The notes beneath the pieces were generated by a model that saw only the letters and a list, made by a program, of their open reading frames with translations, was not told where the DNA came from and searched no databases. Shown in pieces: positions 8,411 to 23,027 of a stretch of DNA of 32,000 bases (position 1 is its first letter; every line of letters starts with the position of its first letter). The translations under genes were made by a program, and so were the position numbers. The stretch is taken from assembly GCA_963675515.1 (NCBI GenBank), contig OY776328.1:2670001-2702000 (forward strand). The letters are read 5' to 3'. This DNA is from Coprobacillaceae bacterium. Lineage in GTDB: Bacteria; Bacillota_I; Bacilli_A; Erysipelotrichales; Coprobacillaceae.

Positions 8411-8560
8411 ACCAGTGTAAAATAACTTGAACCTCCCATGACTCAAGTCACGAGATTCTTGGGATGGAGCTTACTTGAGTATGGTGCATCCACCATACTG
8501 TGCGGTTTCTCTTATTTACCAAGCTATCCCCGTAGTCCCTACGGTTTAGTTGTTATCTAT
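8411..8560 (-). ncRNA. Candidate orphan omega (re)RNA module of the deleted IS605 copy, including the putative guide at 8426-8411
   Basis: The same right-end hairpins as the full copy are present: CCGTAG/CTACGG at 8528-8543 and a 9-bp stem at 8478-8499 with a compensatory base-pair change. The sequence 3' of the right end is GTTATTTTACACTGGT. Confidence 0.4.
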
Positions 8561-9252
8561 GTTGATGCTATTATGCGTAGTCCTTCTTTCAGGATGTTCT
8601 TGCTCGCATTTATGTCCCTGTCATTGGTCGTGCCACATTTTGAACATGTCCATTCCCTGATGTGGAGTGGGTTTTTTCCATCCTTGTAACCACATTTGTG
8701 GTATATCTGACTTGACTCCACCTTGATGATTTCTCTGCCATACCATTCAGCCTTGTAGATAAGCTTATCCACAAATTACCTTTCCATAGACGGCTTTTAA
8801 GCTCAGGATGTTGCTTGAACAGGAATCTTGCAGATAACCATTTGAATGCTTTTACCATACTGGGAATATGGTGTTGGGGCTTGCAATCGATAAGCAAGTG
8901 GATATGGTCCTTATCCGATTCCATTTCAACGATATTTATGTCATTATCAGCTGCAATCTTAGTCAACAATTTCTTAACATCATCACCAACTTGACCAGTC
9001 AGAATATCTTGACGGTATTTCACACACCATACCAGATGGTATTGAATCGAATAGACATAACCACGCCCGCAATTAATATCAGCTATAATAATCAACTCAT
9101 ACACATTTAACATATGGTTGCTAAAAAATACAGTTTCAAAACACTTTTAGCTAGAAATATTTGATAATATAAGTAGCTTATCTATCGCATTTTGGAAGAT
9201 GCACACCTGATCGATTCATCTCCATGACTAAAGGAACGAGTGTTCTCGACCA
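8427..9252 (-). mobile_element. Internally deleted, non-autonomous copy of the IS200/IS605 element, inverted relative to the full copy
   Basis: The left end (9252 downward) and right end (down to 8427, ...GGGAGGTTCAA) align base-for-base by eye with 19851-21701. About 1 kb between tnpA codon ~105 and tnpB codon ~305 is missing. Confidence 0.8.
8557..9113 (-). pseudogene. tnpA'-'tnpB fusion remnant: truncated Y1 transposase fused out of frame to the TnpB C-terminal fragment
   Basis: ORF 8610-9113 follows TnpA (6 differences in 105 aligned residues) up to RLWKGNLW, then reads an alternative frame of tnpB. ORF 8557-8772 is the TnpB C-terminus ([11 protein letters not shown]...[22 protein letters not shown]). 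The tnpA ATGATG start and GAGGTGA ribosome-binding site are mutated to ATTATA and GAGTTGA. The catalytic-Tyr helix is lost. Confidence 0.85.
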
Positions 9253-9260
9253 GTTAATAA

Positions 9261-19676: not shown

Positions 19677-20015
19677 CTGTTCGCTCCTTCTACATTGATA
19701 ATATTATAGCGCAATTTCAAAGAAATACCAAACAACGACGACAATCGATTTCCAGCCCCGTTCCACCAAATGTCATATAAAGGATGAAAACGATTCAATT
19801 TGGATATCCCCTTTTCTTAGTTTACGGTATAATTATGTTAGTTTATAAACTGGTCGAGAACACTCGCGGCTTTAGTCATGTAGATGAATCGACCAGGCAT
19901 GCATCTTTTCGTCTGTGCTGGAAAATGTACATATATTATCAAATATTTCTCACTAAAAGTGCTTTAAAGCTGTATTTTTTAGCAATCGTATGTTACAAAG
20001 TATATGAGGTGATAA

Positions 20016-20444
20016 ATGATGGCTGATATTAATTACGGACGTGGTTATGTCTATTCAATTCAATACCATCTAGTCTGGTGTGTGAAATACCGTCAGGATA
20101 TTTTGACTGGTCAAGTTGACGATGATGTTAAGAAATTGTTGACTAATATTGCAGCTGATAATGACATAAATATCATTGAAATGGAATCGGATAAGGACCA
20201 TATCCACTTGCTTATCGATTGCAAGCCCCAACACCATATTCCCAGTATGGTAAAAGCATTCAAAGGGTTATCTGCAAGATTCTTGTTTAAGCAACATCCT
20301 GAGCTTAAAAGTCGTCTATGGAAAGGTCATTTGTGGAATCCTAGTTACTTTGTTGCTACTGTTAGCGATAATACTCAACAGCAAATAAGAGATTATATAA
20401 AAAGTCAGAAAAAGAAATCCGGTGATGATGATGTTGCACCATAA
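20016..20444 (+). CDS. tnpA: IS200/IS605 Y1 (HUH) transposase
   Basis: 142 aa. YHLVWCVKYR, the HUH motif DHIHLLI, and the C-terminal catalytic-Tyr context QQQIRDYIKSQ. Confidence 0.92.
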   Translation: MMADINYGRGYVYSIQYHLVWCVKYRQDILTGQVDDDVKKLLTNIAADNDINIIEMESDKDHIHLLIDCKPQHHIPSMVKAFKGLSARFLFKQHPELKSRLWKGHLWNPSYFVATVSDNTQQQIRDYIKSQKKKSGDDDVAP

Positions 20445-21570
20445 GGCATACAAGTTCAGGATCTACCCTGATAGTGAACAGGAGATACTGATCTGTAAAA
20501 CGATCGGATGTGCCCGATTTGTCTACAATCACTTTTTGAATTTGTGGAATGAGGAGTATGCTGGTACTGGAAAGGGTCTGTCTTACAATTCCTGCTCCGC
20601 CATGCTTCCTCAGATGAAACGGGATGAAAATACACAGTGGCTCAAGGAAGTAGACAGCATTGCCCTTCAATCATCGGTGAAGAATCTCTCCGATTCATTC
20701 GCAAGGTTCTTCACTAAGCAAAACAGCCACCCGCGATACAAGAGCAAGAAGAATCCGGTTCAAAGCTACACCACCAAGAATGTTAACAACAGTATTGCCG
20801 TAATCGGCAAATCAATCAAGATGCCCAAGCTAGGTATGGTCAAGTTCGCCAAGAGCCGGGAGATCAAAGGAAGAATAATTAAAGCGACTATCCGGAAAAA
20901 TCCCAGTGGCAAATACTTTGTTGCCATTGTTGTTGAAGAAAAGATTGATCAATTGCCTAAAACGAATTCGACAATTGGTATTGATCTTGGTATCCGTGAC
21001 TTTGCGATATTTTCAAACGGCAGAAAAGTCGCAAACCATAAATTCACCATTCAGATGGAAAAGAAACTTATCCGGGAGCAAAAAAAGCTGTCAAGAAGGG
21101 CGCTCCTTGCCAAAAGCAAAGGAATCAATCTTCTTAAAGCAAAGAACTATCAGAAACAAAGACGCAAAGTGGCATTGCTTCATGAAAAGGTAATGAACCA
21201 ACGCAATGACTTTTTGAACAAGTTGACAACCCAGATCATCAAAAACCACGATGTCATCTGCATAGAAGACTTGAACACATTAGGAATGTTGCGTAATCAT
21301 AGACTGGCTAGAAGCATATCCGATGTATCTTGGTCATCATTTGTGGACAAGCTCATCTACAAGGCTGAATGGTATGGTAAAGAAATCATCAAGGTGGACC
21401 GCTGGTATGAGTCCAGTCAAATATGCCATCAATGTGGCCACAAGGATGGCAAGAAGCCACTCCACATCAGGGAATGGACTTGTCCTAATTGTGGCAATAC
21501 CAATGATAGGGATATCAATGCGAGCAAGAACATCCTTAAAGAAGGGTTACGCATAATAGCATCAACATAA
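20422..21570 (+). CDS. tnpB: TnpB (OrfB_IS605) RNA-guided RuvC nuclease
   Basis: 382 aa. N-terminus HKAYKFRIYPDSEQE; RuvC contexts IGIDLGI, VICIEDLN and [11 protein letters not shown]; zinc finger CHQCG...CPNCG. Overlaps the tnpA stop. Confidence 0.92.
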   Translation: MMMMLHHKAYKFRIYPDSEQEILICKTIGCARFVYNHFLNLWNEEYAGTGKGLSYNSCSAMLPQMKRDENTQWLKEVDSIALQSSVKNLSDSFARFFTKQNSHPRYKSKKNPVQSYTTKNVNNSIAVIGKSIKMPKLGMVKFAKSREIKGRIIKATIRKNPSGKYFVAIVVEEKIDQLPKTNSTIGIDLGIRDFAIFSNGRKVANHKFTIQMEKKLIREQKKLSRRALLAKSKGINLLKAKNYQKQRRKVALLHEKVMNQRNDFLNKLTTQIIKNHDVICIEDLNTLGMLRNHRLARSISDVSWSSFVDKLIYKAEWYGKEIIKVDRWYESSQICHQCGHKDGKKPLHIREWTCPNCGNTNDRDINASKNILKEGLRIIAST

Positions 21571-21717
21571 ACAACTACTTAACCGTAGGGACTACGGGGA
21601 TAGCTTGGTAAATAAGAGAAACCGCTGATTATGGTGCATCCACCATAATCAAGTAAGCTTTGTTCCCAAGAATCTCGTGACGTCAGTCGTGAGAGGTTCA
21701 AGTGAGGAGGAAGCATT
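21520..21717 (+). ncRNA. Candidate omega (re)RNA: tnpB 3' end, 131-nt right end and about 16-nt flank-derived guide (5' end not determined)
   Basis: Perfect 10-bp stem with 4-nt loop GATTATGGTG-CATC-CACCATAATC (21627-21650). CCGTAG-GGA-CTACGG stem (21583-21597). A further imperfect hairpin CTCGTGAC..GTCGTGAG lies near the terminus. The guide would be GTGAGGAGGAAGCATT (21702-21717). Confidence 0.45.
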
Positions 21718-21720
21718 TCA

Positions 21721-23027
21721 ATGAAGAAATCAAGATTGATTTATCGAGTTTTTTGGCTCTGGGTCTGGTTGCCTGTGCTAGTGGCGACACCGGCAGCGAC
21801 ACCATCGACGGTACTTACAGCTACCAGGTGACCGGTTACGACTGGGGCGCTGGCGTAAACAAAGCGGTATTGTCTTTGGATCACAAGCTGACCCAGATTG
21901 ACGCCCAGGACTTGAAAGTTGTCGAAACTAAACAAGTGACCGACTGGTCGGATTCGACATACCCGGTCAATGTCGTTGATATCGATCGCACCATCACTGA
22001 TGTCTATCTGTGTGACGCGGACGGAAACAAGGTTGAAGGCGACAGCAAATTTGTGGCTGTGGAAATGTATGTCAGCCCAAGTGACGGTTCGCCATTGTTG
22101 TATTCGATGGCGACATCACGCAACACCTGGTCAAACCCATACACTTTGACTTTCACTCTGGCTGATGGTGCCACCGTCGATTCAATGGGCGAAACAGTAA
22201 CGACATTCACTGTCGACACTGAGGCGGCAGCCTACACAACTTCAGCAAGCATGTTCGAAGAAGGTTCTTACCAAACCGACTCAGGTGAGACTTATGGTTA
22301 TGTGACCTACGAACCGACCGAAAAATCAGACACCCTGTTTGTCTGGCTCCATGGTGGTGGTGAAGGTTACGTTGAAGGTTTTGATGTCTCTATCCCGGTT
22401 CTGGCAAACAAAGTGACTGCCCTGGCCGGAGAATAATTCCAGACCGCAATCGGCGGAGCGGCAATCCTGGCGCCACAATCTCCGACATTCTGGATGGACA
22501 GTGGTGACGGTACTTGGACAGGCGACAACGTGACCAAGTATACTGAAAGCCTGATGCAGCTGATCGACCATTACAAAACCGAATATGGAGCTACCAAAGT
22601 GGTTGTTGCCGGATGTTCTAATGGCGGATTCATGACATTGGATCTGATGATGAACTACCCAGAATACTTCACTGCGAGACTACCAATCTGCGAAGGTAAA
22701 CTTGACGAAAACGTGACCGACGAACAGATTGCTGCCTTAAAAGACCAAGCGATGTTCTTCATCTATGCCAAAAACGATACAACACTTGACCCTTCAATCT
22801 ATAGCGAACCAACTATCGCCCGCTTGAAAGAAGCAGGAGCAACCAACCTGATGGTGGCATCACCTGACACAGTTGTTGACACATCCGGTATATACATAGA
22901 TGCTCATGGAAACCCTTATTCATATTCAGGTCACTGGTCTTGGATCTACTTCGACAACAACGAAGCTCTCGATGACACAACCCAACAAGACTCATGGTCT
23001 TGGATCGCTGAACAATTGAACAAATAA
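21721..23027 (+). pseudogene. Decayed lipoprotein alpha/beta-hydrolase (esterase): 1-nt frameshift in the signal peptide plus an in-frame TAA
   Basis: ATG at 21721 (GAGGAGG ribosome-binding site) encodes MKKSRLI in one frame. The lipobox LSSFLALGLVAC continues in the -1 frame, which is consistent with loss of one T at 21740-21742. TAA at 22434-22436 separates ...KVTALAGE from FQTAIGG... in the same frame. The downstream part carries the GCSNGG nucleophile elbow. Confidence 0.7.

Follow-up and report, generated by a model that had tools for sequence, protein, structure and literature searches.

The described insertion sequences that come closest to the element analysed here are ISDra2 from Deinococcus radiodurans, ISGst2 from Geobacillus stearothermophilus and IS608 from Helicobacter pylori. 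The element lies in a stretch of 32,000 nucleotides (nt) from a Coprobacillaceae bacterium (assembly GCA_963675515.1, contig OY776328.1), which we refer to as the window and whose numbering is used throughout. In ISDra2 the omega-RNA terminates at the right end and its guide is drawn from the flanking DNA; the transposon-adjacent motif (TAM) is TTGAT. For TnpB2 of ISGst2 the TAM TTTAT was established by experiment and the right-end motif is TTCAC; the DNA guides covary with the TAM and with the transposon-encoded motif (TEM), and experiments on this element demonstrated that TnpB works as a homing endonuclease (Meers et al., bioRxiv 10.1101/2023.03.14.532601). In IS608 the cleavage sites are recognised through 4-nt guides just 5' of the hairpin feet; the left site is TTAC with guide AAAG, and the right site is TCAA (PMC3201880). 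We consider it very probable that positions 19847-21701 of the window are one copy of a multi-copy ISDra2-like IS200/IS605 element (IS605 group) with TnpA, TnpB, an omega-RNA and a homing cycle. This kind of element is already well characterised, and a corrected TAM and element boundary are the chief gain of the analysis.

The two genes of the element are the following:

20016-20444, + strand: tnpA, Y1 HUH transposase of 142 amino acids (aa), assigned by Pfam Y1_Tnp and the ISDra2 TnpA structures 2XM3/2XMA
20428-21570, + strand: tnpB, RNA-guided nuclease of 380 aa, assigned by three TnpB Pfam domains and the match to ISDra2 TnpB

The Pfam model Y1_Tnp matched the tnpA product over its entire length (residues 2-121/121, E=1.8e-42) and the best solved relatives are the ISDra2 structures (E=5e-47), whereas the IS608 TnpA is more distant (E=4e-26). 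In the alignment with ISDra2 TnpA, DHIHLL stands opposite DHVHLL (the HUH motif) and RDYIKSQ opposite QKYIESQ, which carries the catalytic Tyr. The gene tnpB follows downstream on the same strand, with a 17-nt overlap at the tnpA stop; its own stop codon is at 21568-21570. Its open reading frame (ORF) opens with GTG 20422 (382 aa), whereas ATG 20428 gives the 380-aa form found in public collections. We observed the domains HTH_OrfB_IS605, OrfB_IS605 and Cas12f1-like_TNB, and the ISDra2 TnpB structures 8H1J/8EXA matched at E~1e-88 with 41% identity. Counting residues through this alignment places D188/E282/D364 (382-aa numbering) opposite D191/E278/D361 of ISDra2 TnpB, the RuvC D-E-D triad, and the CxxC..CxxC zinc finger is intact (CHQC...CPNC). 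The original prediction, made from the sequence without database searches, had described an intact TnpA+TnpB element of the IS605 family and proposed the alignment with ISDra2 TnpB as a check; the HUH motif, the Tyr, the D-E-D triad and the zinc finger were all recovered with no catalytic residue substituted. ISDra2 thus provides the best solved-structure matches to both proteins and the same catalytic residues, although the TnpB of the window lacks the ~30-aa C-terminal extension of ISDra2 TnpB. Judged by its sequence, the element is intact-looking and probably active.

Several sets of related sequences were available for comparison. The source contig of 2.88 Mb encodes at least 10 TnpB variants that are 92-100% identical to the TnpB of the window, and further copies of the family came from Logan/ENA assemblies (L001, L029-L035). 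A genome scan returned 27 relatives in Bacillota with TnpB proteins that are 51-82% identical; Erysipelotrichaceae, Oceanobacillus, Gracilibacillus, Enterococcus, Ligilactobacillus and Paenibacillus are among their hosts. Elements annotated as tnpA + tnpB that match about 85% of the window element at 72-73% DNA identity occur in over 500 plasmid records, for the most part of Enterococcus. These IS200/IS605 elements on Enterococcus and Paenibacillus plasmids share the tnpA+tnpB layout and have TnpB proteins 72-75% identical to ours, but form a separate sub-lineage. Among the chromosomal relatives retrieved from Enterococcus, many have TTTAA as their target, end in TTCAC and possess a longer terminal hairpin.

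The right end and its structured tail

The following features were assigned to the right end and the adjoining flank:

21583-21701, + strand: putative omega-RNA scaffold, conserved, about 119 nt (alignment of 24 relatives, RNAalifold consensus, covariation counts and single-sequence fold)
21670-21701, + strand: right end (RE), the TnpA substrate, with DNA guide GAAT (21670-73), imperfect palindrome (21674-93) and TTCAA (21697-21701)
21702-21717, + strand: predicted 16-nt guide GTGAGGAGGAAGCATT, the first 16 nt of flanking DNA past the RE boundary

The tail after the tnpB stop extends over 131 nt (21571-21701) and has the terminus ...GAGGTTCAA at 21701. Three hairpins can be read directly from the sequence: a 6-bp hairpin at 21583-21597 (stem 1), a perfect hairpin of 10 bp with a 4-nt loop at 21627-21650, which is the variable hairpin of the relatives, and a terminal imperfect hairpin at 21674-21693 with two G.T pairs. 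Tail and hairpins had already been placed at these positions in the original prediction. The RE palindrome is CTCGTGAC-GTCA-GTCGTGAG. TTCAA is the TEM, and cleavage by TnpA is predicted to occur after 21701. The tail layout is kept in every relative and in all of them similarity is lost directly after TTCAA or TTCAC. Moreover, the last bases of the metagenome contig L034 (1860 bp), which starts at TTTAT, are GGTTCAA. Both observations place the right end at 21701, as had been predicted, and support GTGAGGAGGAAGCATT as the guide; its length of 16 nt was taken over from ISDra2. With up to 3 mismatches allowed, the guide is unique within the window.

We then compared the fold of the tail across about 30 related elements, in which it is retained over the last ~119 nt with compensatory changes. 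For a tail of 124 nt the folding energy is -40.2 kcal/mol (z=-3.6), a value that none of 200 shuffles attained. The consensus fold, computed with RNAalifold from 24 distinct tails, consists of stem 1 (CCGUAG/CUACGG), a long-range CUUGG/CCAAG pairing, an AGAG/CUYU stem, the variable hairpin and the terminal hairpin. Across its 24 consensus pairs 97.6% of the cells are paired, compared to 28-48% with slid partners. Compensatory changes on both sides occur in 10 of the 24 pairs, and not one of 500 shuffles attained any of the observed measures. Conservation begins at ~21583, 13 nt past the tnpB stop. In the scaffold stems G.U pairs are frequent across the relatives, which points to an RNA read from the + strand and not to a DNA signal. 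These comparisons support the proposal of a candidate omega-RNA scaffold, that is, a tail that forms a conserved structured RNA of the omega-RNA type.

A structured tail could also be explained without any RNA function, as the mere DNA substrate of TnpA, or the whole copy could be a decaying and inactive fossil. The terminal hairpin and TTCAA are indeed TnpA signals and the left-end hairpin of this copy is imperfect. In addition, two of the three copies of the element family that repeat pairs and motif searches revealed in the window are dead derivatives:

8427-9256, - strand: copy 2, a non-autonomous derivative with an internal deletion (found through repeat pairs I1-I4 and I6)
1304-1347, + strand: copy 3, a remnant of 44 nt with a single hairpin (found through repeat pairs I5 and I7 and motif searches)

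However, the conserved stretch of about 119 nt exceeds the 30-40 nt or so that TnpA requires, and the stems far from the element end carry compensatory changes and G.U pairs. Both ORFs of the element are full length with intact catalytic residues, and even the non-autonomous copy 2 kept the whole scaffold. We therefore regard a purely DNA-level tail or a fossil copy as unlikely.

The last ~35 nt are recognisably shared with the ISDra2-like RE of Deinococcus aquaticus, which ends in GAGAATCACGCGACTTCAGTCGTGTGAGGTTCAA and has the same hairpin and GAGGTTCAA terminus. The internal scaffold sequence, by contrast, is not alignable with that of ISDra2 by eye, and the ISDra2 scaffold overlaps the 3' end of tnpB, whereas the scaffold in the window lies wholly past the stop codon. 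With ~119 nt it is close in size to the ordered ISDra2 scaffold. A compact TnpB of 380 aa with a scaffold of this size wholly outside its ORF is handy for testing small RNA-guided nucleases.

We also considered a pseudoknot (5'-AAC/GUU-3'). The pairing is possible, but it is invariant in all sequences, so that covariation is uninformative and we do not include it. A weak full-length match to the Rfam family Ref70 (RF02841, Enterococcus small RNA 70) covers 21577-21704 with 23.1 bits against a gathering threshold of 115 (E=0.11). The similarity was not recovered on ten related loci at E<=0.01 and we treat it as a lead; if it is real, the published small RNA may itself be a TnpB omega-RNA.

The left end and the target motif

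On the left side we distinguish the target from the element as follows:

19842-19846, + strand: TTTAT, target motif and TAM, outside the element, invariant at five independent insertions
19847-19897, + strand: left end (LE), with AAAC as its first 4 nt, an outer stem (19851-57/19889-95), DNA guide AACA (19859-62) and a palindrome (19863-83)

The original prediction had let the element start at 19851 and had taken T(T/A)AAC, found 5' of all three left-end copies in the window, as the TAM. We recovered the three left ends and compared their flanks with those of two further insertions. In each line below the left flank is followed by the four bases under debate and by the adjoining left-end sequence:

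Copy 1: GTTAGTTTAT AAAC TGGTCGAG
Copy 2: GGCTTTTTTAT TAAC TGGTCGAG
Copy 3: TAATTTTTTAT TAAC TAGTCGGG
L001: CTGTCTTTTTAT TAAC TGGTCGAG
L029 group: ACGAACTTTAT TATC TGGTCGAG

TTTAT is constant in all five independent insertions, whereas the following 4 nt vary (AAAC, TAAC or TATC) and no bases upstream of TTTAT are common to the five. The relatives show the same pattern: TTTAT is kept while the next 4 nt are AACC in L003, CGAG in L002 and TGAG in L025. The spacing from TTTAT to GAGAAYACTCG is 9 nt, also in L002 and L025. Paralogue pairs within the same genome start to match at TTTAT (L002/L025), TTTAA (L007/L008, L010/L011) or TTGAT (L009/L021), and the contigs L034 and L035 both start at TTTAT. 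At the right end no flanking bases are repeated, i.e. there is no target duplication. As TTTAT is invariant and the next four bases are variable, those four (19847-19850) are best assigned to the element, with the left cleavage 4 nt further upstream than predicted. From these alignments we conclude that the TAM is TTTAT at 19842-19846 and that the element occupies 19847-21701.

The DNA guides provide a second line of evidence. Applying the pairing scheme implied by IS608 (C1-G2, C2-G1, C4-G4), we compared each cleavage site with its 4-nt guide:

Site TTAT, guide AACA: window element family and L003
Site TTAT, guide AATA: L002 and L025
Site TTAA, guide AAGT: L007, L010, L012, L013 and L020
Site TGAT, guide CAAA: L009 and L021
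Right site TCAA, guide GAAT: window element family and relatives
Right site TCAC, guide GAAG: relatives

All six pairs fit the scheme, that is, the left and right motifs covary with the guides. A cleavage site TAAC or AAAC would require a guide TA?G, which the LE guide AACA does not provide. Thus TTAT fits this guide and TAAC does not, which supports TTTAT as the TAM.

A start at 19851, with TnpA and TnpB recognising T(T/A)AAC and a natural target of TTTATAAAC joined to GTGAGGAGG, draws on a string that is truly there: L001 and all three copies in the window have TAAAC or TTAAC ahead of TGGTCGAG. But the L029-L035 insertion has TTATC at this place, reading TTTAT followed by TATC, and the TTTA upstream of the string would have to recur by chance at 5 of 5 sites. 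Furthermore the relatives retain TTTAT while the next four bases shift to AACC, CGAG or TGAG, and the LE guide is unfit for TAAC under a scheme with which all other TAM/TEM pairs compared agree. We consider the start at 19851 very unlikely. The empty site had likewise been given as TTTATAAAC joined to GTGAGG; the comparison of copies moves the joint 4 nt upstream, and we conclude that the predicted empty site and homing target is ...GTTAGTTTAT joined to GTGAGGAGG, in its longer form GTTAGTTTAT joined to GTGAGGAGGAAGC.

The LE imperfect palindrome (19863-83) is CTCGCGGC-TTTA-GTCATGTAG. The LE and RE palindromes are alike and in direct orientation, and there are no terminal inverted repeats. IS608 likewise has subterminal imperfect palindromes, 4-nt guides 5' of the hairpin feet and an identical right site TCAA, but its target is TTAC and its spacings are 19/10 nt, compared to TTTAT and 16/8 nt for the element in the window. 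The TAM also differs from the TTGAT of ISDra2. With ISGst2 the element shares the TTTAT TAM, a TEM of the TTCAC/TTCAA type, the guide covariation and the presence of non-autonomous PATE-like copies that keep omega-RNAs within the same genome; host and sequence are different. For this family the comparison illustrates that bases adjoining the first recognisable left-end sequence can be element DNA. TAM calls need several independent insertions and guide/TAM covariation, not copies from one genome.

Some further observations concern the left end. An outer stem TGGTCGA/TCGACCA (19851-19857 with 19889-19895) encloses the LE hairpin, and relatives preserve its pairing through compensatory changes (L003: AGCCGA/TTGGCT; L002: CTGA/TCAG; L025: AAGCTGA/TCGGCTT). 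The stem may form a structure in the 5' untranslated region of tnpA or one that blocks read-through. A promoter scan of the left flank and the LE returned no consensus promoter on the + strand. TATAAT at 19828-33 has no -35 element and is not claimed as a promoter. The Gracilibacillus massiliensis relatives L009 and L021 have a TTGAT target, as in ISDra2, and their left end lies only ~250 nt upstream of tnpB, which marks them as tnpB-only elements that lack tnpA.

The proposed homing cycle

Production and processing of the RNA, guide length, cleavage and homing can be proposed by analogy with ISDra2 and ISGst2. TnpA, a Y1 HUH enzyme, would bind the subterminal imperfect palindromes and excise and insert the top strand by 'peel and paste'. 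The 4-nt guides AACA (LE) and GAAT (RE) would pair with TTTAT at the end of the left flank and with TTCAA, the last bases of the element, respectively. The tnpB transcript would run on through the scaffold (21583-21701) into the flanking DNA, and TnpB would bind and trim it to an omega-RNA whose guide is formed by the ~16 nt past the right end. After excision the re-sealed site, TTTAT directly followed by GTGAGGAGGAAGCATT, would be the only good target, as it combines the TAM with a guide match. TnpB would cut this site and recombination with the sister copy would restore the element. The occupied site would be spared, since TTCAA takes the place of TTTAT beside the guide match.

Four points weigh against this picture. 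First, the covariance-model scan for omega-RNA families that had been suggested as a check returned no Rfam family at the gathering threshold within 19851-21717. Secondly, the LE hairpin of copy 1 departs from the family consensus CTCGTGAC..GTCATGGAG by a C.A mismatch and by two G.T pairs, so that excision of this copy may be impaired. Thirdly, neither the gapped-pattern scan of metagenomes for copy 1 nor that for the L029-type insertion yielded an empty site, and the boundaries consequently rest on the comparison of copies. Finally, the exact pairing scheme draws in part on general background on IS608, whose right guide GAAT appears identical to the RE guide in the window.

The downstream esterase and other features of the window

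The element is followed by an esterase region (21702-23027) that encodes an EstA Ig-like N-terminal domain and an alpha/beta-hydrolase. GTG 21702 is the first base past the element and the start of the 244-aa product (P0121) in the public annotation. The native ATG 21721 opens a frame that reaches a stop after 35 codons. It is the frame of GTG 21702 that contains the lipobox (LVAC) and everything that resembles the homologues; ATG 21721 is out of that frame, which suggests a 1-nt indel near 21740 in the start region. Further downstream an in-frame TAA (22434-36) replaces a conserved Glu (ALAGE*FQ, where homologues have ALAGEEFQ) and separates the HGGGEG region of the hydrolase domain from the GCSNGG serine motif. 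As this stop splits the domain, the esterase is a pseudogene whichever start is used. We also considered a frameshift at 22436-22494 and rejected it, as both ORFs are in the same frame with one TAA between them. A homologue search for an ortholog with an uninterrupted locus gave only the sequence itself and homologues of at most 44% identity.

The original prediction had identified the guide with the ribosome-binding site of the neighbouring gene. Taken literally this is correct: GGAGG (21706-21710) lies inside the guide, 10 nt before ATG 21721. Any function of the overlap is hypothetical, and the neighbouring gene is itself a pseudogene. Relative to the esterase mRNA the guide has the sense orientation; as the occupied site is flanked by TTCAA and not by the TAM, action of TnpB there is not expected. 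The overlap of guide and Shine-Dalgarno region follows simply from where the element inserted, after a TTTAT in the esterase leader, and no regulatory consequence is expected.

That the insertion instead drives or regulates the esterase, through read-through from tnpB and translation from GTG 21702 or through modulation by TnpB acting on a co-transcript, seems to us extremely unlikely. In this family the right end does carry G(G/A)GAGG, which resembles a Shine-Dalgarno sequence, ahead of its final TTCAA; here GAGAGG (21692-97) sits 5 nt ahead of GTG 21702, which opens the annotated 244-aa ORF, and the native ATG is out of frame with the lipobox. However, the esterase ORF stops at TAA 22434-36 where the homologues continue, and a similar expression arrangement was not seen conserved in other copies. 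It is just as improbable that the element acts as a portable expression cassette, bringing a ribosome-binding site and read-through to within 5 nt of host DNA at every insertion, here with GTG 21702 as the new start, and coupling the processing of the co-transcript by TnpB to expression of the neighbour.

In copy 2 tnpA breaks off ahead of the catalytic Tyr and is joined by the deletion, in the wrong frame, to the final ~230 nt of tnpB; LE, RE and the complete omega scaffold survive. Its TAM is TTTAT (9261-9257) and its predicted guide GTTATTTTACACTGGT (8426-8411), so that copy 2 could serve in trans as the source of a second guide for TnpB. Copy 3 consists of the 5' part of an LE fused to the 3' part of an RE, with TTTAT (1299-1303) in front and TTCAA at its end, as if it had arisen when the LE and RE palindromes recombined. 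As it lacks the RE guide GAAT, it is probably immobile.

Elsewhere in the window we observed a match to the group II intron family (Rfam RF00029) at 30075-30159 on the - strand with 61.6 bits (E=5.7e-10). It is adjoined by two ORFs on the same strand, 30174-31328 and 31213-31968, which may encode the intron-encoded protein.

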